DNA from: Abditibacteriaceae bacterium
GTDB taxonomy: Bacteria; Armatimonadota; Abditibacteriia; Abditibacteriales; Abditibacteriaceae
Length of the DNA stretch: 17,611 nucleotides
Assembly: GCA_031425655.1 (NCBI GenBank)
Contig: JANPJS010000237.1
Location: forward strand, 1-17,611
Direction: 5' to 3'
Below are positions 1-12,199 of this stretch, piece after piece. The notes beneath the pieces were generated by a model. It searched no databases and was not told the DNA's origin. It was given only the letters and a program-made list of their open reading frames with translations. The first letter of the stretch is position 1. Each line of letters opens with the position of its first letter. The position numbers were made by a program, and so were the translations under genes.

Positions 1-17
1 CTCATTAATAGTTTCAT
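1..17 (-). CDS. 5' end of a gene running off the window edge (MKLLM...)
   Basis: Minus strand reads TAAGGAaaaaaactATGAAACTATTAATGAG: an AAGGA Shine-Dalgarno overlapping the upstream stop, then ATG at 17. Only 5 codons visible. Confidence 0.45.
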
Positions 18-27
18 AGTTTTTTCC

Positions 28-369
28 TTACCATCTTCCTTCTGATTGCAGTCTTCGAACGATATTGAGTAAATCCTTGCAGTCTCGGGAGCTGTTTTGT
101 GCGTAGTTGCCCTTGAAATCTTTTTTAACGTAGAGTTGAAAGTAGTCGCCATTGCGAACTATTTGCGACATTTTTCCAGGTTGAATTTGCTCTAAAACGA
201 GTCTGGACACATTATAGGATCCATTGCTGGCAACGAGGCTTGCCATGATGAAATGAAGCAACTTGCCTTCCATCTGTGAGCGGGCGTAAAAATTAAGGGC
301 ACCCGTTTTTGGATTAATCTGCGAAAATCCGTGTATGAAATCCGTGTAGGCGCAGCCTCCGTGTTCCAT
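28..369 (-). CDS. Hypothetical protein (113 aa; alternative start at 273), low-GC
   Basis: Same strand as the cluster, stop coupled to the next RBS. No family recognised. GC of 1-360 hand-counted at ~43%. The 5' part contains an out-of-frame direct repeat, so the start is uncertain. Confidence 0.4.
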   Translation of the reverse strand: MEHGGCAYTDFIHGFSQINPKTGALNFYARSQMEGKLLHFIMASLVASNGSYNVSRLVLEQIQPGKMSQIVRNGDYFQLYVKKDFKGNYAQNSSRDCKDLLNIVRRLQSEGRW

Positions 370-402
370 TAAAAATTCAGGCCCTTCAAGTAACTATGAA
401 CC

Positions 403-2184
403 TCACTGAGCCGGGGTCGCAGTCTGCATTCGATAAACCTGAAAACCGGCCCGCGCCAGTGAAGCCGGAATCTCGCGCATCATGGCGCGGTTGAAATCGC
501 GCGTGCCGTCGCCTAATTGCTCCCACGGCACCAGATTCGGATTGGTTTTGCGATTGGCATCGCGCGGCCCGCAACGCCAGCCCAACGCCTGACGCTCGGC
601 CATCCAGCGTTCGTGTTCCATGCGCGCCATCAGTTCGACTTCGTCGGGCGTAAAGCGAAACCCATGAGCGTCCCAATCGGTTAAAGGCGCGATGTCGCAA
701 CCGATGGCCTGCAATTTTTCGCTGATATCAAGCGCCTGCGCCCGATTGGATTCGCGCGTTTCTTCGGGCACGGCGTCCCACGGGGCTAACAGCGGGTTTT
801 GCTCGCGCGTCACGCCGGCGGCTTGCTGATCTTCAATATATTTGTCGTGCAGCGCCCGCGCCAGCATTTCCGGGATGCCGCCCAGCACCAAATCGGGCTG
901 ACAGGCGCGCTCCAACAATCCCACCGCGTGCAGCGATTGAAAGCGCGGCTGCGCTTCGCCCACGCGCCGCAGCAAGGCCGATAATCCGGCTTCCTGCGTC
1001 ATAGCGACGACAATCGGCACCGTGGTGTGGCGCAAATGCCGGTGCAGAATCAGCGCAGCCGAAAGCGCGAGGGAGTCGTCGGGCAGACAAACGTAAACGT
1101 GCGACACGTCGCAGTGTCCGTTTTCATCGAACAAAAACGCGGCGCGCTGAAAATCCGGCTCGTCGCATTTCATTTCCAGTGAGCGCAAGTCGCAGATTTT
1201 TTCGAGTTCAGGATGGCGCAAGTGCAGCATCTCGCGCACGCAATGCGTGTCGCTGTCTACCAAAGTCAAGCGTAATTTCGGCAGGCTGCTGATGTCGGCA
1301 TTCGGCGCCGCAGCGAACAAAATTTCGCGCCACGCGCGGGCCATATGCACGAGTAGGCTTTGCGCCAATCGCCCGCCGCCGACAATCAGCAAATGCGGCG
1401 TGCGTTCGGTCATGCCCTCGAACGGCGGATGCTCGTCCAACAACGCCCGCGCCGAGCTATCCACGACGTTGAAAAATTGCAAACGAAACGAGCCATGCTG
1501 CGCCATTTCCCATTCGCGCATCAGATACCACAAATCCGGGTTGACGATGTGCGCGCTGCACACTAACACGCCGTTGGTGCGATGTTCGGACAATTCGCGG
1601 GCGTGGGCGGCGATTTCAGCATTAACGCCGTCGTCGCCGCACAGCACGATGAGATGGCGCGCATCGCCGAGGCGCGCTTGTCGCATCAAGGCCGGTTCGC
1701 GCGCGTCGCCCCACAGCACAACAGCGCCCAACTCGCGCGCGGTGCCGGCGAAATCGTTGGATTCGCTTTCTTCAATAATCGCCACATCGCGGCCCTGTGT
1801 GCGAAAGGCTTTGAGCAGCAAAAGCCCTTTTTCGCCCAATCCGCAAATAATAACGTGGTCTTTGAAGCCGCGCAAACGCATCCGCTGCCAGCCATCGCCG
1901 CGAATAAAATAAGCCGCAATCGCCGCCGTGAAAACGCCCAACGTGCCGATGCCGGCGAACATCAGGAACATCGCAATCAAGCGCCCGCCGATGGTTTTCG
2001 GAAAAATATCGCCGTAGCCGATGGTCGTAACCGTCACCATCGCCCACCAAAAACTATCCCAGAGCGAAAGTTCAGGATTGCCCGGCTTTTCAAAGTAAAA
2101 GAAGCCCACCGCGCCCGCCAGCGCGACAGCCAGCAAGATGCCGCAGATGCCAAAAAGAATGGAGTTTTTGCCGGAGTCGCCCAT
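403..2184 (-). CDS. 2TM potassium channel with two RCK/TrkA-N domains and C-terminal tandem RyR repeats (593 aa)
   Basis: TM1, pore helix DSFWWAMVT, filter TVTTIGYGD (2008-2034), TM2. Rossmann motifs HVIICGLGEKG and HLLIVGGGRLA. Tail LARALHDKY..NPLLAPWDAVPEETRESNR and LMARMEHERWMAERQALGWRCGPRDANRKTNPNLVPWEQL, typical of RyR domain (PF02026). Confidence 0.92.
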   Translation of the reverse strand: MGDSGKNSILFGICGILLAVALAGAVGFFYFEKPGNPELSLWDSFWWAMVTVTTIGYGDIFPKTIGGRLIAMFLMFAGIGTLGVFTAAIAAYFIRGDGWQRMRLRGFKDHVIICGLGEKGLLLLKAFRTQGRDVAIIEESESNDFAGTARELGAVVLWGDAREPALMRQARLGDARHLIVLCGDDGVNAEIAAHARELSEHRTNGVLVCSAHIVNPDLWYLMREWEMAQHGSFRLQFFNVVDSSARALLDEHPPFEGMTERTPHLLIVGGGRLAQSLLVHMARAWREILFAAAPNADISSLPKLRLTLVDSDTHCVREMLHLRHPELEKICDLRSLEMKCDEPDFQRAAFLFDENGHCDVSHVYVCLPDDSLALSAALILHRHLRHTTVPIVVAMTQEAGLSALLRRVGEAQPRFQSLHAVGLLERACQPDLVLGGIPEMLARALHDKYIEDQQAAGVTREQNPLLAPWDAVPEETRESNRAQALDISEKLQAIGCDIAPLTDWDAHGFRFTPDEVELMARMEHERWMAERQALGWRCGPRDANRKTNPNLVPWEQLGDGTRDFNRAMMREIPASLARAGFQVYRMQTATPAQ

Positions 2185-2270: not shown

Positions 2271-3155
2271 TTATTCGTCCAACATCTTAATTGCCTGGCG
2301 CAAGCTGCGGTGCATTCGGTTGAACGAGCCGGAAAGCGTGGCAATTTCATCGTTGCCGCGCACTGGCAAGTCTTCGACTTCTAAGTTGCCTTTGCTGATT
2401 TCGTCCGCGATATGCGAAAGTCTGGTGACAGGCTGCACCACAATCACGCGCAGCATGACGTTGAGAATCACGAGCGTGAGGATGAGCACAGCGGCTAAAG
2501 CGCCTAACATCAGGCCCGAAATGCGGCGGGCCATGCGTTGCGGGAGCGTCATCGGAACGGACACGACCTGCGCCGCGACAACTTCATTTAACTTCCAGCC
2601 GAAGCCGCCTTTGCCATATTCCCGAATCTGCGAGGCGGGCGCCATCGCGGGTGTGGTGTGGCATTGCAGGCACGATTTGTCCTTAATGCGAATGGGGCGC
2701 GCTAAATACAAATACGGCCCGCGCGGTGTGGCGCGTGTGCCGACGATTTCTTTGAGTGTTGAGTCTTTGCGAAAGCGGTTGAGCAGCGGCTCTTCCCATT
2801 TCGTGGCGATGTGTTTACGGTTGGTCGGGTTGAGCGAGGCTTCCTTGTAAAAGTAATCGGGATAGCCTTCGCGCAAATACTCAAACGTCCGCGTTGCGGA
2901 AAACGCCGGCACTGTTTCGGCCACGAATTTCCCATTGCGCTCAAAGGGCAGTTGGGGGCGAATACGCGTGTTGGTGTATTTCCGCACCGCGAGGGCGCTC
3001 TGCATCATCAGGCGTGCATCGCTTAAAACGTGTTCCCTGGCCTGTCGCTGTAAGAGCGCATTGAATACCCATCCCGCGAGCAGCAGCCCCGCGAGCGAAA
3101 CAACGATAAAAATAAGATTAAATTTCGGCACCAGCCGAAGCGAGAGGAAGTTCAT
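2271..3155 (-). CDS. Membrane-anchored c-type heme sensor (DUF3365/Tll0287-like) + HAMP, no output domain (294 aa; alt TTG start 3161)
   Basis: N-terminal TM; ETVPAFSA, YKEASLNPTN, LYLARPI, CLQCH (CxxCH, 2658-2672), GFGWKLNEVVAAQVVSVP; second TM; HAMP (PVTRLSHIADEISKGNL..DEIATLSGSFNRM) then stop. Confidence 0.9.
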   Translation of the reverse strand: MNFLSLRLVPKFNLIFIVVSLAGLLLAGWVFNALLQRQAREHVLSDARLMMQSALAVRKYTNTRIRPQLPFERNGKFVAETVPAFSATRTFEYLREGYPDYFYKEASLNPTNRKHIATKWEEPLLNRFRKDSTLKEIVGTRATPRGPYLYLARPIRIKDKSCLQCHTTPAMAPASQIREYGKGGFGWKLNEVVAAQVVSVPMTLPQRMARRISGLMLGALAAVLILTLVILNVMLRVIVVQPVTRLSHIADEISKGNLEVEDLPVRGNDEIATLSGSFNRMHRSLRQAIKMLDE

Positions 3156-3165
3156 AAGCAAGGTG

Positions 3166-4098
3166 TTACTTCAATAATTGGCGGCCTTTCAAAAAAGCCT
3201 GCTTTTCTTTTGGTGAAGTGAGATTCTCGGACAGCGATTGGTAAAGCTCGTCTAAATTCGCGGCCTGTTTGCTGGCGCGCTTGACCAGCACGCGCGCCAG
3301 TGGCCCCATATGTTCGGCCAGTTGGCGCTCGATTGTGTGCAAAACATTGTCGTCCCACACGGGCTGCGCGATCTCAATCGGCGCGGCGATTTCCGGTGCT
3401 GTCACGGGCGTTCCCTGCGGCGCGATATGCTGTGTCGCTTCTAAAAAGCGTTGGCGCTCGGCGTCTTGCAGCACAAATTGGCTGACTTCACGGCACAACT
3501 CGCTCAAGTTCTTAACTTTGAGCGCGGTTTGATGCACCAACACGCGCGCCATTGGCCCGATGACAACCGCCAACTCGCGCTCGACTTGGCGCAGGTCGTC
3601 GGGATTCCACTGCGTTGCCGCTTGCGTCACCTCCAACTCGGCGTCCTCGGTTTCTTCGGACACCTCGATCATTTCGAGGGCTTCATGGCGACCAGTCGCC
3701 TGCAAAAGCGCCTGAATGGTGTGCGCCAGCCTTTCCAAATGCGCTTCCATCGGCGGTGTGAGCGCGTCCAGCCAGTGCGGCGTGCCGATGAAATAGCGCA
3801 TATGCTTCGAGAGAGACACGTCTTCGAGGCGAAACGGCACAATCGGCAAGCCTTCGCTGACGGCATTCTGCACTTCGCGCTTCACTTGCTGCGAATCGTT
3901 GGAAGCGGCAGATAAAAGCAGCACGAGGACACGCGCGCTGGTGAGCGCATCCATGATTTCGTCCGTCCAGTCGTTGCCGGGCGTCACGTCGCGCGGCGCG
4001 ATCCAGCAGCGAATGCCGCGCGCCTCAAGTGTTGCGCAAACCGCATCCGATGTTAATTTATCTTTTGAAGAATAGCTGATGAAAACGTCGTGCGGCAT
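3166..4098 (-). CDS. TIR-domain protein (TIR_2 type) with two C-terminal 56-aa helical repeats (310 aa)
   Basis: HDVFISYSSKD, CWIAPRDVTPG, VLVLLLSAASNDSQQVKRE (putative catalytic Glu75), PIVPFRLE; acidic linker; repeats at aa 164-219 and 248-303. Confidence 0.92.
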   Translation of the reverse strand: MPHDVFISYSSKDKLTSDAVCATLEARGIRCWIAPRDVTPGNDWTDEIMDALTSARVLVLLLSAASNDSQQVKREVQNAVSEGLPIVPFRLEDVSLSKHMRYFIGTPHWLDALTPPMEAHLERLAHTIQALLQATGRHEALEMIEVSEETEDAELEVTQAATQWNPDDLRQVERELAVVIGPMARVLVHQTALKVKNLSELCREVSQFVLQDAERQRFLEATQHIAPQGTPVTAPEIAAPIEIAQPVWDDNVLHTIERQLAEHMGPLARVLVKRASKQAANLDELYQSLSENLTSPKEKQAFLKGRQLLK

Positions 4099-4114: not shown

Positions 4115-4414
4115 TCAACCGGAGCCGGTTTCGCTCTTCTCGATACGATAACCCAAAGCCAAAATCACTTTGATGACTTGTCGCGCGATGATGCGGTCGT
4201 AGTCTTTTTCGATTTCGGACAACTCCTCATAAACGACCAAACACGGATGTTTTTTGCAGTCGTCGTCACGCTGCGGCCCATAAGTCCAGCCTTCGGACAA
4301 ACGCTGCTGCGCCCACACATCGTGCGTGTTACGCGATAGAAATTCCAACAAGGCCGCTAACTCTGGGTCGAGTTCAATATGAGAAGTATCAATCGGCGCC
4401 GGTGTGTAGTCCAA
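4115..4414 (-). CDS. Stand-alone RyR-domain (ryanodine receptor repeat) protein (99 aa)
   Basis: YTPAPIDTSHIEL..LLEFLSRNTHDVWAQQRLSEGWTYGPQRDDDCKKHPCLVVYEELSEIEKDYDR..IKVILALGYRI matches the RyR repeat consensus. TTG start with GAGGA RBS and in-frame stop upstream. Confidence 0.93.
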   Translation of the reverse strand: MDYTPAPIDTSHIELDPELAALLEFLSRNTHDVWAQQRLSEGWTYGPQRDDDCKKHPCLVVYEELSEIEKDYDRIIARQVIKVILALGYRIEKSETGSG

Positions 4415-4491: not shown

Positions 4492-5274
4492 TCAACCGCC
4501 CCGCTCGTGCGTTGCCATATTATCGAATCGTTCCAGAGCCGATTGCATCGCTTCGGGCCGAACACTTAAATCGCCGGAAAACGGAAAATTCATCGCGCTG
4601 ATGATGAACAAAACCAGAGCAATCGTCGCGGCTAAAATAGCCGTCATCGCCGCTTGATTCTTGAATTTTTCCAACCCGAAGAAATAAGTGAAAAGCATCG
4701 TTGCAATGCCGCCCGCGATAAGCACCAACCACATCGGGCCGGGCACACCGCTGCGCCCGGCCAGCAGTCGCAAGCGCCGATTATCGCTGACCTCGGTCAG
4801 GCGCGAGAGACATTGGTCGTAAAGCACGCTTTCGCGGGCGCCCTTCGGCTGTAAATGCGTAAAGCCCGACCACAGGCGATCAAGATGCAGCGACGACTGG
4901 TCATCCAACTTGCCGCGCGCCATCGCCGGCCATTCTTTTTCGATGACGCCCTCTGCGTAAACGCGAATGTCTTTACGCAGACGCGCCGCTGTGGGCGCAG
5001 CAAATCCGGGCGCCATGCGATAAACGTCTAACAGCGCATTCGATTCGCGCTCAGCGACGACTTTGGCTTCTTCAAACTGTTCCCAGACTATCAAAACCGC
5101 GAAGGCCAACAGCACCGCGTAAATCACGCCGACGATAGCCAAAATAAACCCCGCCACGTCATGATGCTCGCGCAACGTGGCGGGCGACACCACGCGGCGC
5201 GCGATCCATAAACCGCCGACGGATAGCCCAACCGCGCCGCCAACCATTAGCGTGCCCAATAGCCACAGTCCCAT
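4492..5274 (-). CDS. DUF4239 / bestrophin-like membrane protein (260 aa)
   Basis: Two N-terminal TMs (incl. VGVIYAVLLAFAVLIVW), soluble helical middle (YAEGVIEKEWPAM, RRLRLL), two C-terminal TMs followed by NFPFSGDLSVRPE. ATG 5274 chosen because the ORF-track extension is translated palindrome. Confidence 0.8.
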   Translation of the reverse strand: MGLWLLGTLMVGGAVGLSVGGLWIARRVVSPATLREHHDVAGFILAIVGVIYAVLLAFAVLIVWEQFEEAKVVAERESNALLDVYRMAPGFAAPTAARLRKDIRVYAEGVIEKEWPAMARGKLDDQSSLHLDRLWSGFTHLQPKGARESVLYDQCLSRLTEVSDNRRLRLLAGRSGVPGPMWLVLIAGGIATMLFTYFFGLEKFKNQAAMTAILAATIALVLFIISAMNFPFSGDLSVRPEAMQSALERFDNMATHERGG

Positions 5275-5287
5275 AATTTCTCTTGAA

Positions 5288-5326
5288 ACACAAAGGCACA
5301 AAGAATCTCTCTTTGTGCCTTTGTGT
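5288..5326. repeat. Perfect 17-bp inverted repeat built from CACAAAG units (REP-like hairpin / possible terminator)
   Basis: ACACAAAGGCACAAAGA (5288-5304), loop ATCTC, TCTTTGTGCCTTTGTGT (5310-5326). Confidence 0.88.
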
Positions 5327-5357
5327 CGGGTGCCCTCTGGGCGGATGGTTAATTGCT

Positions 5358-7241
5358 TTACACCGGCGCGATACGAACTTTCACTTTCATGTCGGTGTTA
5401 ACGTGGTGCATCCGCACGCCACCGGCGCGTTTGCGCTCCAACATCTGCTGATGGCCGAGCGCCGCGGCATCCGGCAGTTTCACCGTGAGGCCTTCGGCGT
5501 CGAAATCGGTGTGCGGCTGGCCGTTAATGGTAACCGATTCGATTTTGATGCTGCCCGGCGGCAAAATATCGGGCGATACGCGCAAAATGTTGTCCTTGAA
5601 ACCGCCCGCTTTCGGCTTGAAATAAAAGTCCATCGGCTGCTTGGTGATGAGCAGATTGGTGTAAACCGCCGCTAAATAGCACAACTCAATCGAGTGATAA
5701 GCGCCCATCGAGTGGCTGCCCTTATCGCGCTCCGAACCGAGCAAATACGGCAGGCCGTTCGCCAAGACGTTGAAATAAACCGCGCCTGAATCAGTGTCCA
5801 AGAACCACGCATTGTAAAACGCCGACGATTCGCGCGCCAGTTTCAGGTATTCGTCTTTCTTCGTGCAGCCATTGAGAATGAGATAGGCCAAAATGCCCTG
5901 CTCTTGCTGCCACCACGCTTTGCGGTCGTGGAACGCCAAGCGATGAAATTCTTCGCCCTCGGCTTTTTGGCGTTCCATCACGTCATACCAGCCGCCGCGC
6001 TGCTGATCCATGCTGATCGCAGGCATTGAGTCAGCGAGTTTGCTCGCCAAAGCGGTGTATTTTTCCTTCGGACGCAGCGAGTTCATGCGCATCAAATTCC
6101 AGGCGATTTTCAAATCGTGCCCGGCGACGGCGCGGTCTTGCTGCCAGCCCCACTTTTGGTCGGCGCTCCAATCGTCGAAGAATTTTTCCTGCACAAATGG
6201 GCTGCCGTCTTTAGCTGGAAAATGCTCTTCGATGGTATCGAAAGTGTATTCCAGGAAGTCGGCGAAATCGTCGCGACCCGTGGCCAGCCACAGGTTGATG
6301 AGATAAGCCGGCGCGTGGTCGCCCACCGAGTTCCAGTTTTTGCGCGCTTGATTATGGGCCAACGAATCGGCCTTCGGGTCGAAGGTGTCGGTCGTGACGT
6401 GCGAGTAGTAGCCGCCCTTTTCCGAGGTGTCGAGATAATGCTTGTTGAAAAGCGCGATGGTCTTTTCGGCGTCTTCGAGAATGCCGGGGTCGCCGGTAAT
6501 GCGATAAGTCTGAATCGGGCCGGCGAGAGCGTAAATCTGCTCGTAGCAGGGAACAGCGGCCCAGTCGTCGCCGAAAAGCGAGCCGAGATGCTCTTTGGTG
6601 CCGCCGGCAGTGACTTCGAGCGCATGAAGCCAATAAACGATGTCATTGCCCCGGTCGCGCTTGCAGCACTTTTCGCGCAGATATTGCGTGCCTTTTTCCG
6701 CCGCTTCGAGGAAACGCTCTTCGCCTGTCAGCAAATACGCCGACGCGAAGCCGTAAGTCGTGCGCGAAATGGTGTCAATTTCCTGAATGCCGCTGCCCAA
6801 TTTGCTGCCGTCGAGAAACAGGTTGGTGCGATAATTGTTGAAATCTATCGGGCCGCCCTCGAACTGCGCCGCGATGTAAAAATCAGCGACTTGGCGCGCC
6901 TGCTCAATCCACCAATCCTGCTTTTCAAAGCAGAAATCCTCCGGCTTGGTGCCGGGAAAAACAAGGTGCTTGGCCTCGAAGTTGTAATCGCCGCCTTCGG
7001 GGTAGAAAACGCCGTAGGCGAACACGTAGTTGCCGGGCACCAGCACGTCTTTGAGAGTGCCCATCGCGTCTTTGTAACTCTCGCCTAAGTTGCGCACGAA
7101 CTCGCCGAAGGTGGCCGAGGTCAGCTTGCCGGAAAATTCGGCGCCGCCCGGCGTTTTGAGGCTAAAAGTGCCTTTGTCCACATCGGCGGCTGTCAGCGTG
7201 CCGGCGATGGTGTCCGAAAACATCCAATTGATCTGGTTCAT
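5358..7241 (-). CDS. AGE-family (N-acylglucosamine 2-epimerase/cellobiose epimerase superfamily) protein with extra N- and C-terminal domains (627 aa)
   Basis: Barrel motifs ISRTTYGFASAYLLTGEERFLEAAEKG, EQIYALAG, KNWNSVGDH, GHDLKIAW, WWQQEQG, YHSIELC. ATG 7241 preceded by AAAGGA. Confidence 0.85.
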   Translation of the reverse strand: MNQINWMFSDTIAGTLTAADVDKGTFSLKTPGGAEFSGKLTSATFGEFVRNLGESYKDAMGTLKDVLVPGNYVFAYGVFYPEGGDYNFEAKHLVFPGTKPEDFCFEKQDWWIEQARQVADFYIAAQFEGGPIDFNNYRTNLFLDGSKLGSGIQEIDTISRTTYGFASAYLLTGEERFLEAAEKGTQYLREKCCKRDRGNDIVYWLHALEVTAGGTKEHLGSLFGDDWAAVPCYEQIYALAGPIQTYRITGDPGILEDAEKTIALFNKHYLDTSEKGGYYSHVTTDTFDPKADSLAHNQARKNWNSVGDHAPAYLINLWLATGRDDFADFLEYTFDTIEEHFPAKDGSPFVQEKFFDDWSADQKWGWQQDRAVAGHDLKIAWNLMRMNSLRPKEKYTALASKLADSMPAISMDQQRGGWYDVMERQKAEGEEFHRLAFHDRKAWWQQEQGILAYLILNGCTKKDEYLKLARESSAFYNAWFLDTDSGAVYFNVLANGLPYLLGSERDKGSHSMGAYHSIELCYLAAVYTNLLITKQPMDFYFKPKAGGFKDNILRVSPDILPPGSIKIESVTINGQPHTDFDAEGLTVKLPDAAALGHQQMLERKRAGGVRMHHVNTDMKVKVRIAPV

Positions 7242-7286
7242 AGGTTCCTTTTTGAATTGGACTGCGCGCGTCAGCGCGTCAGCCAA

Positions 7287-9512
7287 TTAAACATCGGCTC
7301 GTTCGACATTGTCCGGCGTTTTTCCGACAGCGGCGGTCATCTCGCGCGCGGCGCCTTCAGGGTCGGCGATGGTCGCGGCGTCGGCTTCCTTGCCTGTTCT
7401 CATGTCTTTGGAAATCAACACTACAACGCTGTGCCCATTGACGATATAAACATTGCCGTCCACAGGCGTTTCGCGGCCTTGCTCGGCGAAATCGTCGGGC
7501 GAATGCAGCGAAGTATCCAATGAGCGGTGCCAGGTGCGCGCCGCGACGTGCGGAATCTCGAACGGCAGCGATTCCCAGCTCATGTTCATCATGACGTGCA
7601 TATCGGGATCGTCGCCGAAACCGGCCATCGTGAAGGCCAGGACATTAGAACCGGGATCGTCCCAACCCGGCCCGTTTAACTGGCAGCCGTGCCAACCGAC
7701 ATCAGGCAATCCGCGCTCGTTGAGTTGGCCGTTGAAAAAGCGCGTGCGGCGCAGAATCGGGTGCGATTTGCGGAACGCGATCATCTGCGTGAAGAAGCGC
7801 AGCGTGTCGCTGTGTTTGTCAACAAGGCTCCAGTCGAACCACGAAATTTCGTTGTCCTGACAATACGCGTTGTTGTTGCCGCCCTGTGTTTTGCGCACTT
7901 CGTCGCCGGCGCAGATCATCGGAACGCCCTGCGAAAGCAGCAAAATCGCCGCGAAATTCTTAATTTGCTGATTGCGAAGCTGTTCGATGCCGGCGTCGTC
8001 GGTTGGGCCTTCGACGCCGCAGTTCCAACTCAGGTTATCGTCCATTCCGTCGCGGTTGCCTTCGCCGTTGGCCGCGTTGTGCTTGTTGTTATACGACACC
8101 ATGTCGTTCAGAGTGAAGCCATCGTGGCAGGTGATGAAATTCACGCTGTTGACCGGCAATTCGCCGCCGTATTGAAACACTTCGGCGCTGCCGCCAATCG
8201 AGCTGGCAACAAGGCCAACCAATCCGGTGTCGCCCTTGACAAAGCGACGAATCGAGTCGCGGTAGCGCCCATTCCACTCGCCCCAGCGATAGCCGGGAAA
8301 ATGCCCGCTTTCGTTCAAGCCTTCGGCGTCCCAACACTCAGCGATGACTTTGGAATCTGCAAGCGTTTCCGACAACTCGATTTGCCAGATCACCGGCGGA
8401 TTCGGCATCGGCGCGCCGTTTTCATCGCGCGTGAGAACCACGGCTTCATCGAAGCGAAAGCCGTCAACGTGCATCTCGCGCACCCAGAATTCCAGCGAGT
8501 CAATGATGAACTTTTCAACAATCGGATGGTTGGCGTTAACGCTGTTGCCGCAGCCGGTGTAGTTCATATAGAACTCGCGGTCGGCGTGCGACAGCATATA
8601 ATAGGTGCTGTTGGCCAGCCCCTTGAAGCTCATGACCGGCCCCTGCTCGTTGCCTTCGCTGGTGTGGTTGTAAACCACGTCCAAAATGACTTCGAGGCCG
8701 GCCTTGTGAAACGCCTTCACCATATCGCGGAATTCGTTGATGTGCTGGCCAAACTCCGGCGTGGTGCAATAGCTGCTGTGCGGCGCAAAGAAACCAACGG
8801 TGCTGTAACCCCAGTAATTGCACAGCCGCGAGCCATCGGGCATCTCGCGCACGCCTTCTTTGGTGTCGAAGTCGAAGACCGGCAATAGCTCGATAGCCGT
8901 GACGCCTAAGCTTTGGAAATAAGGAATCTTCTCGATCAGACCGGTAAAGGTGCCGCGCGTTTTATCGTTCACGCCCGAAGTCGGCGATTTGGTCAGGCCG
9001 GCAACGTGCGCTTCGTAAATGATGGACTCTTCCATCGGGCGATTAAGTGGCTTGTCGCCTTCCCAATCGTAGCCGGAAAGGTCAATGACCACCGAGCGCA
9101 TCGAAGTTTTGAGGTTGTCGTCCGTCCCGCAGGCGGCACCGCGATCCCAAAGCGTATCGGTGTTGCCACGCGCATAGGGGTCAATCAGCACTTTGTTGGG
9201 GTTGTAACGGTCGCCGCGCCCGTGCAAGTCTTTCGGGCCATCCACGCGATAAGCGTAATGCGCGCCCGACTTCAAGCCGCGCACGTAAACGTGCCAAAAA
9301 TAGAACGTCTTGTTCTTGACCGCATCGAGATTGATGGTCTGAACCGGCTCCACATCGTCGTGGGCATCGAAAATCAGCAGTTCGACACGGGTCGCCGAAT
9401 CCGAATAAATCGAAAAATTGACGCCGTTGTCATCGGGAATCGCGCCCAGAGGATGGCTTTGGCCCGCTTCGGTTTCGTAATAAGTTGTGGTGGGTGGCTT
9501 GGCTTTTTTCAT
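7287..9512 (-). CDS. glgX: Glycogen debranching enzyme / isoamylase (GH13 with CBM48) (741 aa)
   Basis: [52 protein letters not shown] (nucleophile), IAECWD (acid/base), [32 protein letters not shown]. Start 9512 avoids overlap with the VOC gene. Confidence 0.95.
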
Positions 9513-9516
9513 GAAA

Positions 9517-9942
9517 TTAATCCAGAGGCGGCGGTGAATCCTGATCTGTGTAGCCCTGACTGACTTCCACAATGTTTCCATCGGGATCGCTCAGCCAAAC
9601 GGTGCGCCAGCCGGGAATAAAGGCATCGAAATCGAGCGGCCCCAGCGTGATTGTGGCGTCTTCGCCCATCGCGCTGAGCGTGGCGTCCACATCGTCCACT
9701 TGAAACGCGATATGGCGCAAACCCGGAAAATGCGGCCCGTCGCCGCCGGCGGGCGCCGACGGCGCTTCGCCTTCGGACGAAAACAATTCCAAATACACTT
9801 CGCCGGCCTTCAAGAACACGATTTGCTGCTCGCCGAGAGGAATCACGCGCGCCCGCTGGAAGCCAAAATGCTGCGCGTAAAAACGCTCGGTGGCAAGCGG
9901 GTCTTTGCAGGAAAGCGCGATATGAGAAAATTTAAGAGCCAT
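9517..9942 (-). CDS. VOC (glyoxalase/bleomycin resistance/dioxygenase) family protein (141 aa)
   Basis: SHIALSCKD, FYAQHFGF, YLELF, LRHIAFQVDDVD, DPDGNIVEV; full His/Glu/His/Glu metal-ligand set. Confidence 0.93.
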   Translation of the reverse strand: MALKFSHIALSCKDPLATERFYAQHFGFQRARVIPLGEQQIVFLKAGEVYLELFSSEGEAPSAPAGGDGPHFPGLRHIAFQVDDVDATLSAMGEDATITLGPLDFDAFIPGWRTVWLSDPDGNIVEVSQGYTDQDSPPPLD

Positions 9943-9953
9943 GAGGGTGCCTT

Positions 9954-10634
9954 TTATTTTTTGGGTTTAACCGCACTCGATTTCGCGGCGCTGCCCTGCG
10001 CGGCGATGACTTTTTTGGCCGCCGCGACATTAGCTTTCGCGGCGCTCTTTTCCGCAACAACCGCCTTCTCTGTCAGAATCTCGATGATCTTGCGGGCGAA
10101 GAAATGGCAATGGCCGCCGGTGCGTGCCGTCACTAAGTCGCCGTCCACGACCACGTCTTCGTTGACGTAAATCGCACCCATGTTTTTGGCATCGCCGTGC
10201 AAGTTATTATGCACCACAACCTTGCGGCCCTGAACCAATTCCGGCATCGGCGCCATCAGCCACATTCCATGACAAATTATGCCTTTGAGAATGTCTTTAT
10301 TGGCAAAGGCGCGCTGCATAAAGAGCGTTGCGGGCGGCAGATTATTAACGTCTTCCGTGTAACGCAAGCGGTCAGCCACCATGCCGGCGGGGACGATAAT
10401 CGCGGCATAGGCCGCCAAATCTTCGTCGCTCATGCCTTCGAGACTTTGCTCCGAAAAAACCCCCGAAATGTGATATTCGTGGCCTTTGAAATCAATGTGG
10501 CTCTGGCCCCACAAGCGTGTCAGGAAAACGACTTCGGCGCCTTCTTCGGCGAAACGGTGCTGGTAATACCAGATTTCCGGCTCGTAAAAGTCGCTTTCGA
10601 TGAGAATACCGATTTTTTTGCCTTGCAAATTCAT
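9954..10634 (-). CDS. DJ-1/PfpI family protein with Ala/Lys-rich tail (226 aa; alt GTG start 10652)
   Basis: GKKIGILIESDFYEPE, AIIVPAG, nucleophile elbow GIICHG, VVVDGDLVTAR. ATG 10634 preceded by AAAGGA. Confidence 0.92.
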   Translation of the reverse strand: MNLQGKKIGILIESDFYEPEIWYYQHRFAEEGAEVVFLTRLWGQSHIDFKGHEYHISGVFSEQSLEGMSDEDLAAYAAIIVPAGMVADRLRYTEDVNNLPPATLFMQRAFANKDILKGIICHGMWLMAPMPELVQGRKVVVHNNLHGDAKNMGAIYVNEDVVVDGDLVTARTGGHCHFFARKIIEILTEKAVVAEKSAAKANVAAAKKVIAAQGSAAKSSAVKPKK

Positions 10635-10648
10635 AAGTTGTCCTTTGT

Positions 10649-12199
10649 TCACGACTTCAGGGCTAAATCGGCGACTTTTTCACCAATCATCACGCAAGCC
10701 GCGTTAGTGTTGCCGCGCACAATGTTGGGCATGATCGAAGCATCGGCCACGCGCAAGCCCGCGACGCCGCGCACTCTAAGCTCGGAGTCCACGACCGCCA
10801 TGTCGTCGTTGCCCATTTTGCAGGTGCCCGCGACGTGCCAGACCGTGCGGCAGTAATTGCGAATGTATTCGCGCATTTCATCGGGCGTAGCAGTCGGCCC
10901 CGGCGACACTTCGCCATCGGTGAATTCCTGCATCGGCCCGGTCTTGGTAATCTCGCGCGAAAGCTCAATGCCCTGGCGCAGCACCTCGACATCTGAGGCT
11001 TCCTGTAGATAATTGGCGCGCACGACGGCCAAATCCTGCGGGTTCGCGGAACGCAGGCTCACCGTGCCCCGGCTTTGTGGCCCGACTAAAATCGGCACGA
11101 AGGCAAAGGCCGGCATCGCCACAGGATAAGTCGGCAACACAAATTCCGGCTTTCCGGCGCCAAAGTGATATTGCAAATCCGGCGCTCCGTCGGCTTTGTC
11201 CAGTCCGTTGCTTTGGCCGCGCTGCGTGTTGACGAACAAGCCTGCTTCCGCGATGAAGTAAGGCAACGGCAGGTCGCGCTTCGACTTGTGCCAGACCGGG
11301 AGCAGCAAATGATCCTGCAAATTCTGCCCGACGCCGGGCAAATCCGCCTGCACGTCGAGGCCATGCTGCTGCAACTGGCCCGCAGGGCCGATGCCCGACA
11401 GCATCAGCAATTTCGGCGAGTCGAAGGCGCCCACGCACAAAATCACTTCGCGCGCCGCGTGCGACTGCTGTATCTGGCCTTCGTGCAGATATTCGACGCC
11501 CACGGCGCGCCCGTTTTCCAACAGCACGCGCGTGGTGTGCGCGCCGGTTCGCACCTCAAGGTTGGCCCGGCCCAATATCGGGTTCAGATAGGCGACGGCG
11601 GTGCTGGCGCGCTGGCCGTCGGGCGTGACGGTGAATTGATAAAGCCCCGTCCCGTTTTCCTGCTGCGCGCCGTTGAAGTCGTGATCCCCGGCAAAGCCTA
11701 ACTCAGGCCCGGCCTGCGCGAAGGCTTCCGCGACGGGCGTCGGATAAGGATTGCGCCGCACGCTGAGAGGCCCATCACCGCCGTGAAACGCAGAGTCGCC
11801 GCCTTCGCAGGTTTCCATGCGCTTGAAAAAGGGCAGCACTTCGTCAAAGCTCCAGCCGGGGTTGCCCAACGCGCTCCAGCTATCGAAATCGCGCCGGTTG
11901 CCTCGGACGTGAATCATCGCGTTGAGCGCGCTCGAACCGCCCAGCACTTTACCGCGCGCAATGGGAATCACACGATTGTTGAGGCCCGGCTCCGGTTCGG
12001 TGGCGTAATTCCAGTCCACCTCGCTGCCCCACAGCTTGAGCAAATCCGGCGGATTATGAATCTCCGGTTTGGTGTCGGGGCCGCCGGCTTCGAGCAGCAG
12101 CACCCGATTGCCGGCGTCGGCGCTCAGGCGATGCGCCACGACGCAGCCCGCCGATCCCGCGCCGATGACGATGAAGTCGAAAGTGCTATCGGCACTCAT
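10649..12199 (-). CDS. GMC family FAD oxidoreductase (choline/glucose dehydrogenase-like) (516 aa)
   Basis: FDFIVIGAGSAG, RGKVLGGSSALNAM, GAFDSPKLLMLSGIG, GQNLQDH, WHVAGTCKMG, RVADASIMP, GNTNA. ATG 12199 preceded by GGGAG. Confidence 0.95.
   Translation of the reverse strand: MSADSTFDFIVIGAGSAGCVVAHRLSADAGNRVLLLEAGGPDTKPEIHNPPDLLKLWGSEVDWNYATEPEPGLNNRVIPIARGKVLGGSSALNAMIHVRGNRRDFDSWSALGNPGWSFDEVLPFFKRMETCEGGDSAFHGGDGPLSVRRNPYPTPVAEAFAQAGPELGFAGDHDFNGAQQENGTGLYQFTVTPDGQRASTAVAYLNPILGRANLEVRTGAHTTRVLLENGRAVGVEYLHEGQIQQSHAAREVILCVGAFDSPKLLMLSGIGPAGQLQQHGLDVQADLPGVGQNLQDHLLLPVWHKSKRDLPLPYFIAEAGLFVNTQRGQSNGLDKADGAPDLQYHFGAGKPEFVLPTYPVAMPAFAFVPILVGPQSRGTVSLRSANPQDLAVVRANYLQEASDVEVLRQGIELSREITKTGPMQEFTDGEVSPGPTATPDEMREYIRNYCRTVWHVAGTCKMGNDDMAVVDSELRVRGVAGLRVADASIMPNIVRGNTNAACVMIGEKVADLALKS

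Follow-up and report, generated by a model that had tools for sequence, protein, structure and literature searches.

The operon and its potassium channel

The DNA analysed here, called the window throughout, is a 17,611-nucleotide stretch from an Abditibacteriaceae bacterium (assembly GCA_031425655.1, contig JANPJS010000237.1), and it carries a one-strand operon in which the gene for a solo ryanodine receptor (RyR)-domain protein is followed by genes for a TIR-domain protein, a heme receptor and a K+ channel, the gaps between them being 16, 10 and 86 nt. The features are given below, with residue numbers counted within each protein and the basis of each assignment in brackets.

403..2184, minus strand: two-transmembrane (2TM) K+ channel with tandem RCK domains and a tandem RyR tail, 593 residues (open reading frame (ORF), Pfam, AlphaFold model, structural matches)
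1903..2169, minus strand: pore domain of the channel, residues 6-94, comprising M1, pore helix, filter and M2 (Pfam Ion_trans_2; KcsA and MthK matches at E about 1e-14)
2008..2028, minus strand: K+ selectivity filter TTIGYGD, residues 53-59 (translation)
1432..1860, minus strand: RCK1 Rossmann lobe, residues 109-251, with GLGEKG, E138 and GDA at 159-161, without C-lobe (Pfam, model, motif census)
901..1401, minus strand: RCK2 Rossmann lobe, residues 262-428, with GGGRLA and D310, without C-lobe (model, structural matches, motif census)
688..870, minus strand: RyR repeat A, degenerate, with H446 and Y449, without the GWxxG hairpin (profile, alignment, family census)
436..639, minus strand: RyR repeat B, retaining H524 and W527, with N548 and N565 in place of H100 and D117 of the phage protein RyDEP (profile, alignment)
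2271..3155, minus strand: Cache_heme (Tll0287/DUF3365)-HAMP receptor that lacks an output domain, its sole two cysteines lying in CLQCH at 162-166 (Pfam)
3166..4098, minus strand: TIR_2 domain (Glu75 in SQQVKRE) fused to a pair of PF26309 helical bundles that carry GP[ML]ARVLV motifs, at 180 and 264 (Pfam, motif census)
4115..4414, minus strand: solo RyR-domain protein, 99 residues, with H31, W34, H56 and D73 (Pfam, alignment to RyDEP)
295..377, no strand: dispersed repeat just past the channel stop (genome-wide copies)

Pfam analysis of the channel identified Ion_trans_2 at residues 17-94 (E 5e-19), TrkA_N at 111-203 (4e-17) and RyR in two stretches (4e-16), and the translation reads T53-T-I-G-Y-G-D59 at the selectivity filter, which an earlier note made from the sequence alone had described as intact. 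The AlphaFold model, built from 115 aligned relatives (predicted local distance difference test (pLDDT) 93.7, predicted TM-score (pTM) 0.87), consists of M1, pore helix and M2 followed by two back-to-back six-stranded Rossmann domains, in agreement with the two Rossmann domains of that note. RCK2 is undetected by Pfam and was assigned from the model and from structural matches over both domains. Foldseek placed GsuK first (E 4.5e-14), while VIA-align returned the DMI1 gating ring (Z 21.3, root-mean-square deviation (rmsd) 3.9, 322 residues aligned), the CASTOR gating ring (Z 21.0), GsuK (Z 20.3, rmsd 5.8, 353 aligned) and a KtrA chain (5BUT; Z 19.4, 263/268 residues). These matches to RCK rings span channel residues 108-475 and thereby indicate two RCK Rossmann domains per subunit. 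The earlier proposal that the tetramer would carry a ring of eight RCK domains is supported by this likeness to GsuK, DMI1/CASTOR and Slo.

The RCK C-terminal lobes of GsuK and MthK are absent from the channel, in which Pfam finds no TrkA_C match. In the model the RCK1 helix 240-251 leads straight into RCK2 strand 264, and RCK2 leads through helix 430-455 into the first RyR repeat, the module continuing directly. The nucleotide motif of RCK1 (GLGEKG, residues 115-120) is intact, as had been noted, whereas the description of that of RCK2 (GGGRLA, residues 269-274) as degenerate was too strong, only the last glycine being replaced by alanine. Among 60 relatives with a K+ filter, the RCK1 GxGxxG motif is intact in 56 and E138 is acidic in 59; the RCK2 glycine motif is intact in 28 of these 60 as compared to 145 of 159 other relatives.

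The channel resembles GsuK (PDB 4GX0/4GX1/4GX5; PMC3510474), MthK, Slo/BK and DMI1/CASTOR in having a 2TM K+ pore and a pair of RCK domains in each subunit, and it shares with GsuK-type channels an adenine-nucleotide motif within an RCK, the intact one lying in RCK1 here and in RCK2 in GsuK. It differs from them in the absence of RCK C-lobes, in the tandem RyR after RCK2, and in an operon with TIR, heme receptor and SLOG-SLATT-like genes. It is probable that RCK1 is a further site for ATP, ADP or NAD+ and determines the threshold of the channel. Alternatively, the protein may be a metabolic K+ channel of the GsuK kind, gated by ATP, ADP or NAD+ at RCK1, with the RyR tandem as a structural or ATP-binding stand-in for the RCK C-lobes and the neighbouring genes acting elsewhere. 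Such a channel would accord with the top structural match, with the activation of GsuK by ADP and NAD+ (PMC3510474) and with the conservation of RCK1, albeit that we consider it distinctly unlikely in view of the gene context described below.

The RyR tail and its predicted nucleotide pocket

The earlier note had placed two RyR-like units at about 427-867, the first without the GW-x-x-G loop, and both statements hold: the RyR profile places the units at 436-639 and 688-870, and the GWxxG hairpin of repeat A is missing in 216 of 219 relatives and present in three, its absence being family-wide. Repeat B scores 44.3 bits with PF02026, over the curated cut-off of 27.4, and repeat A 21.9 bits, below it. 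The tail matches RyR2 in sequence (E 1.6e-15), and when folded alone (pLDDT 88.6) its model matched RyR Repeat12 in a Foldseek search of the PDB (E 5e-8, TMq 0.54-0.65 among the matches listed), while a search of BFVD returned phage RyR proteins (best E 2.8e-4). The model and these structural matches point to the two-repeat tandem RyR fold, the fold on which the earlier proposal for the tail depended.

The phage protein RyDEP cleaves 2'/3' cyclic ADP-ribose (cADPR) with H75 and D117, the adenine being stacked on W78 and the phosphates held by H100, and six of eight RyDEP homologues bind without cleavage (PMC13232231). The RyR Tad sponge has a Kd of 43 nM for 3'cADPR, with a loss of about 100-fold in the double mutants H129A/W132A, H154A/K147A and K170A/D171A, and animal Repeat12 binds ATP (10.64898/2026.06.04.730250). 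Alignment with both phage proteins assigns RyDEP H75/W78/H100/D117 to H524/W527/N548/N565 of repeat B and to H446, Y449, N463 and N480 of repeat A, while the solo RyR protein retains all four residues as H31, W34, H56 and D73. The residue set of a RyDEP-type glycosidase (the His75 and Asp117 dyad with Trp78 and His100) is thus incomplete in the channel tail and complete in the solo protein. Catalysis by the latter does not follow from its four residues, as these are also found in RyR Tad, which is a sponge; among 19 distinct solo RyR proteins the H/W/H/D pattern is found in 13, four vary at the third position and two fall outside it.

H524 and W527 are invariant in the K+-filter relatives (60/60), in which position 565 is Asn in 57, Thr in three and never the catalytic Asp, as compared to Asp in 102 of the 159 other relatives. 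Since H524 and W527 are kept and the catalytic Asp is missing, we predict that an adenine nucleotide binds to the tail and stays uncleaved there, perhaps with lower affinity than in the sponges. That this nucleotide is ADPR or cADPR is a good bet by analogy with the phage proteins (PMC13232231; 10.64898/2026.06.04.730250). RyR2 repeat 2 has Asn at both of the positions changed in repeat B, which, together with the binding of ATP by animal Repeat12, also suits an ATP-binding tail on a GsuK-like channel.

The tail is alike to animal Repeat12 (PDB 9LS7, 6UHA, 9L90) in its tandem fold, its RyR2 sequence match and its HxxW pocket residues; it differs in that the first repeat has no GWxxG hairpin and in that the module sits on the RCK ring of a K+ pore. 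The earlier suggestion that such a channel is a minimal model of RyR gating is sustained as regards ligand pocket and chemistry. It is overstated as regards the allosteric path to the pore, as the tail here runs on from the RCK2 helix, whereas animal Repeat12 is a peripheral domain of a Ca2+ release channel of about 5000 residues that has no RCK ring. With RyDEP (PDB 35TM; PMC13232231) and RyR Tad the operon shares the H75/W78 equivalents in repeat B and all four pocket residues in the solo RyR protein. When compared by eye, RyR Tad also has a hairpin-less half-repeat ahead of a full one, as in the channel tail, BLAST having aligned repeat B only. RyDEP and RyR Tad are soluble phage anti-defence proteins, whereas the channel tail, in which the catalytic Asp and the phosphate-binding His are missing, would be a cellular receptor. 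RyR domains occur in bacteria (PMC4820453), and the oomycete PKDRR channels are likewise non-RyR channels with a C-terminal tandem RyR, albeit on a eukaryotic PKD/TRP-type pore for which neither an RCK ring nor a ligand has been described (PMC4820453).

A proposed pathway from heme receptor to channel

The operon TIR protein matches TIR_2 best (79.3 bits), with a ThsB_TIR match of 26.9 bits (cut-off 21.2) over just 50 residues and a PADLOC ThsB match at E 2e-4, and Glu75, the catalytic-type glutamate, is kept in all seven TIR-bundle proteins, the operon TIR and six relatives. PF26309 units elsewhere (53 hits) have Ser/Thr kinases or class III cyclases as their usual fusion partners. In the best 80 of 383 metagenome loci of the receptor, PF26309 units lie within 5 kb at 59 and a kinase at 70; PF26309 units were present at 49/49 receptor loci with at least 1.9 kb of downstream sequence, and CxxCH is found in all 120 listed receptors. 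The operon receptor comprises a Cache_heme domain with CxxCH, a transmembrane segment and a terminal HAMP, with no output domain, and like the class that binds nitric oxide (NO) it has no Cys beyond CxxCH. The domain has been defined as Cache_heme, and a HAMP-linked member without axial Cys releases NO slowly (PMC12889525). The receptor of Pseudomonas azotoformans binds NO (10.64898/2026.05.25.727664; PMC12889525) and binds the two bundles of its Ser/Thr kinase, at about 90 nM, through IGPLARFLVRKSLN and IGPIARIVVSRALR (10.64898/2026.05.25.727664). The operon TIR protein contains IGPMARVLVHQTA and MGPLARVLVKRAS, which match the docking motifs of the Pseudomonas kinase bundles. The two systems (10.64898/2026.05.25.727664; PMC12889525) are alike in receptor architecture, in CxxCH without further Cys and in paired docking motifs, and differ in the docked output, a kinase there and, as predicted, a TIR here; TIR, RyR and channel go unmentioned in 10.64898/2026.05.25.727664.

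In the source genome the TIR protein is the only bundle-bearing protein found, no PknB-like Ser/Thr kinase output was found, and cytochrome c assembly proteins are encoded (three matches). PF26309-like bundles occurred in 1/301 genomes of a Nitrosomonas phylum sample and in 0/5 single genomes. Prediction of the receptor-TIR complex gave weak support (0.32 as compared to 0.00 for the best control). Of 157 solved complexes 116 attained this mark, as did 2 of 215 mismatched pairs, but at 0.60 or under it was attained by only 18 of the 157 and by both mismatches; the runs agreed in at least 90% of contacts, with a partner pLDDT of 73. PF26309-class III cyclase fusions, together with cyclase genes that lie near Cache_heme-HAMP receptors (P0283-P0319; L161, L166, L174, L179, L194, L198), may represent an NO-to-cyclic-nucleotide branch, unmentioned in 10.64898/2026.05.25.727664.

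From architecture, residues, gene order and co-occurrence, all directly observed, we infer a signalling chain which we favour tentatively, putting its chances slightly below even: the heme receptor would act through the TIR protein and an ADPR-type messenger on RyR-gated K+ flux, with the solo RyR protein as sink. The Cache_heme-HAMP dimer, facing the periplasm, would bind a gas, probably NO, or another heme ligand, as does its Pseudomonas family member. The TIR protein would dock on the HAMP domain via its two C-terminal bundles, at the site occupied by a Ser/Thr kinase in most other operons, and, to judge from Glu75 and TIR biochemistry, would convert NAD+ to ADPR or a cADPR isomer. This nucleotide would then bind at H524/W527 in repeat B, remain uncleaved and move the RCK ring via helix 430-455, and the ensuing K+ flux would shift the membrane potential. 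A SLOG-SLATT-like protein may be a second reader of the same messenger, while the solo RyR protein may remove it as hydrolase or sponge.

The SLOG-SLATT-like gene of the source genome opens another contig, C177 (C177:264-2273). Its product matches YpsA and DUF4231 weakly, below cut-off, has four hydrophobic segments and has Atlas neighbours with SLATT_1/SLATT_3; its GITGHRD motif we take to be SLOG-like. The first 17 nt of C177 recur only once in the genome, at window positions 295-311 on the minus strand. In the likely source run, the channel contig has a depth of 11.5 and ends in the repeat at 347, the C177 gene has a depth of 11.3-11.7, and window positions 69-314 form a separate piece with a depth of 2.9; no contig of the source run assembly bridges the window and C177. 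On this sequence evidence the C177 gene is probably the true continuation of the operon, adjoining the channel.

A survey of neighbouring genes covered up to 8 kb per side and three sets of loci: 12 further ones with a K+ pore, 11 of the phylum with a non-K pore, and 20 of ordinary K+ channels. The K+-pore loci contain a SLOG-SLATT-like gene, next in order, in 12/12, a TIR in 8/12, a Cache_heme-HAMP receptor in 8/12, a TIR with bundles in 6/12 and a solo RyR in 6/12, as compared to a TIR in 1/20 and the other partner genes in 0/20 control loci; for TIR the enrichment over controls gives a Fisher's p of 3.6e-4, overstated by the kinship of the loci. TIRs confirmed by Pfam are those of L001, L004/L068, L002, L069, L070 and L071. 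Of the non-K-pore loci, five have a TIR or DUF4062 gene and four a SLOG gene, and at distant family loci the neighbours are SIR2-TIR, DUF4062-AAA-WD40 and RelA-RyR proteins. In the source genome there are only two TIR_2 matches, and all three RyR matches fall in the channel operon. The context of TIR, heme receptor, solo RyR and SLOG-SLATT, overlooked by the earlier note, which dealt with the channel gene by itself, points to the ligand of the channel. A channel of the GsuK kind would be in keeping with the loci from which partner genes are missing, but it leaves the SLOG-SLATT-like and TIR counts unexplained, as it does the solo RyR with its full RyDEP residue set in the same operon and a TIR-RyR-RyR fusion found elsewhere.

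Several points weigh against the proposed chain. The census relied on local profiles seeded partly from these same loci, and the loci are kin, mostly of two families. Four of the 11 non-K-pore loci have no partner gene. TIR is missing at four of the 12 K+-pore loci, three with short upstream sequence (620-2939 nt) and one, L065, with 8 kb of upstream sequence. RCK1, whose nucleotide motif is complete, could gate the channel by itself as in GsuK, and repeat B has no equivalents of RyR Tad H154, K170 and D171; as the RyR Tad double mutants there bind about 100-fold more weakly, the ligand may differ or bind weakly. In Pseudomonas, NO raised HAMP phosphorylation with complex formation unchanged, and direct control of the catalytic domain was doubted by the authors (10.64898/2026.05.25.727664). 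Caspase, STAND or TIR-NLR-like genes beside five of the 12 K+-pore loci, finally, favour immunity.

The last observation bears on a Thoeris-like anti-phage or cell-death effector, in which the TIR would fire on infection or damage, the nucleotide would open both the channel and a SLOG-SLATT pore, and the cell would depolarise or die. Here the heme receptor would be a local add-on, and the TIR-to-RyR step is common to this reading and to the proposed chain, trigger and purpose being different. Caspase, nSTAND1, TIR-NB-ARC-TPR or TIR-WD40 genes flank L064, L068, L069, L070 and L071, and other family members adjoin the SIR2-TIR, DUF4062-AAA-WD40 and RelA-RyR proteins mentioned above. Among known systems, Thoeris type X pairs a TIR with an ion channel (ThsK), type VII a TIR with SLATT, using cADPR, and type I has SIR2-SLOG (10.64898/2025.12.03.692087), all sharing with the operon a TIR with catalytic-type Glu beside membrane effectors of channel or SLATT type, and phages carry RyR proteins against Thoeris (PMC13232231; 10.64898/2026.06.04.730250). 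The operon differs from them in its four to five genes as compared to two, its TIR_2-type domain with receptor-docking bundles, its heme receptor and its solo RyR. The main text of 10.64898/2025.12.03.692087 contains no 'RyR', 'RCK' or 'TrkA' and gives no domains for ThsK. Against an effector role stand the receptor-docking module which the operon TIR has in common with kinases and cyclases, the metabolic genes upstream in the window, some of which recur at four of the 12 K+-pore loci, and an intact K+-selective filter that would fit signalling better than lysis. PADLOC matched just six of 60 flanking ORFs (four caspases, one HtrA-type protease and one TIR-WD40), with no restriction, CRISPR or CBASS model among them. 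Of the core genes it matched only the TIR; channel, solo RyR, receptor and SLOG-SLATT were without match. On balance we regard this role as unlikely.

A further alternative gives the TIR the role of a scaffold or of a bulk drain on NAD+. The channel would then sense, at RCK1, falling NAD+ or rising linear ADPR, and there would be no cyclic messenger dedicated to it. Some bacterial TIRs do deplete NAD+ and do not signal (10.64898/2025.12.03.692087), GsuK answers NAD+ at an RCK (PMC3510474), and part of the cADPR-binding residue set is missing from the channel. Against this, SLOG, in type I Thoeris, and RyR (PMC13232231) both read ADPR-type signals, and the presence of a catalytic dyad in the solo RyR is best understood if there is a stable messenger to be removed. 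We consider the alternative very improbable.

The chain from heme receptor to RyR-gated K+ flux can be extended to a complete bacterial pathway from NO through TIR and cyclic ADPR to an RyR-gated channel, with its own eraser, serving the sensing of the environment and not killing. In that case the RyR repeat would be of ancient origin, a receptor module for cADPR exchanged between pores that are K+-selective in this channel and LESG-type in most relatives. This larger proposal we find somewhat unlikely. Each part of the system is known singly. The domain combination is already in databases, an Atlas cluster being named RyR/TrkA-N protein, and a literature search, mainly of openly available papers, did not turn up any work on a bacterial RyR-RCK channel or on a Cache_heme-TIR pair, nor any functional study of the channel family.

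Whether and where cADPR acts directly on animal ryanodine receptors is a long-standing open question. Tests of cADPR at Repeat12 have been called for (PMC13232231), and a 593-residue bacterial channel with the same pocket, which can be purified and recorded, makes both ligand binding and gating testable. If the larger pathway exists, the channel would provide the first direct test of whether cADPR gates a channel through the Repeat12 fold. The channel would also show the cellular role of the RyR domain that phages use against Thoeris, and would carry TIR messengers beyond phage defence into signalling driven by a receptor, the TIR replacing kinase or cyclase on a common docking module.

Family, pore types and further observations

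The family is large. A word search returned 367 relatives (120 listed), and a family-profile search returned 4,445 representatives at E ≤ 1e-30 (150 listed), with architecture checked in part only. Named close relatives among the matches listed belong to Abditibacteriota and Capsulimonadales. In a phylum sample of 401 genomes, 22 were found to encode a member of full length, the source genome among them. The pore types of the 243 distinct listed proteins of 450-700 residues were T[IV]GYG[DE] in 60, QLFxLESG-type in 159 and other or none in 24, the two main types being homologous yet only 17% identical (hhalign probability 91.6). Two trees built from the cytoplasmic part alone, both midpoint-rooted and made from subsamples, gathered the K+-pore rows: a 101-row FastTree placed 31 of them with four others in one branch (support 0.98), and a 50-row quick tree placed 20 with six others (SH-aLRT 97). 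Constraining the K+-pore rows to stay together changed the likelihood by +26 (p-AU 0.81). A single origin of the K+ pore in the family, in either direction of pore change, is therefore not rejected by these sequences.

The QLF[TV]LESG pore of most relatives is, to our eye, reminiscent of the bacterial Nav TLES filter; among the 159 non-K-pore relatives LES occurs in 72 and TLES in 25. A Nav/Cav-like identity is kept as no more than a lead, as a search with the pore profile gave no match to a solved structure (best E 0.4). These LESG-pore relatives (P0052-P0266; L006, L007, L073-L083) may act as Na+/Ca2+ channels or as non-selective ones, and the RyDEP Asp is retained in most of them.

One K+-filter RCK-RyR channel was found in a Bacillota sample of 401 genomes. 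This distant channel (L217:5586-7199) has TVGYGD, an RCK-like part and a weak RyR match, with a size near that of the 516-residue Atlas clusters. It was considered as a link from the family to type X Thoeris, and hence to the identity of ThsK, and rejected with no TIR in 13 kb. The TIR-RyR-RyR fusion referred to above is also from Bacillota (L219:6295-9158, a 349-residue open frame) and lies beside a SLOG-like gene, with no family channel within 14 kb. RyR tails occur on several different outputs: RelA/SpoT-like synthetases and large uncharacterised proteins with C-terminal tandem RyR are encoded at L006:6000-13781, L007:3942-12332 and L222:6378-17551, where they adjoin DUF4062-NTPase genes.

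Upstream of the operon (window 4492-9942) lie bestrophin-like, AGE-epimerase-like, GlgX and glyoxalase genes, the AGE/GlgX/glyoxalase block being beside the cassette at four of the 12 K+-pore loci, with DJ-1/PfpI and aldo-keto reductase genes further on from the block. We presume that these metabolic genes hint at a carbonyl-stress link like that of Kef-type K+ efflux. A plasmid search returned no match over 80% of the query.

At the other end of the operon, window positions 306-377 are a REP-like dispersed repeat with dozens of genome copies, many near contig ends, and a 38-nt stretch of it is identical at C177:28-65. Window positions 1-314 have a low G+C content (42%) and lie beyond the repeat on the low-depth piece (2.9 as compared to 11.5), which may be a misjoin or a minor variant. 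The ORF at 28..369, which has no Pfam match and overlaps both repeat and low-depth piece, was rejected as a member of the system. Among the other K+-pore loci, caspase (Peptidase_C14) genes lie beside the cassette in L064, L070 and L071, in the latter two adjoining TIR-NB-ARC/TPR proteins, and in L001 either decay or sequencing error has left the channel gene and the SLOG-SLATT-like gene as two ORFs apiece (8001-9759 and 9807-11958).

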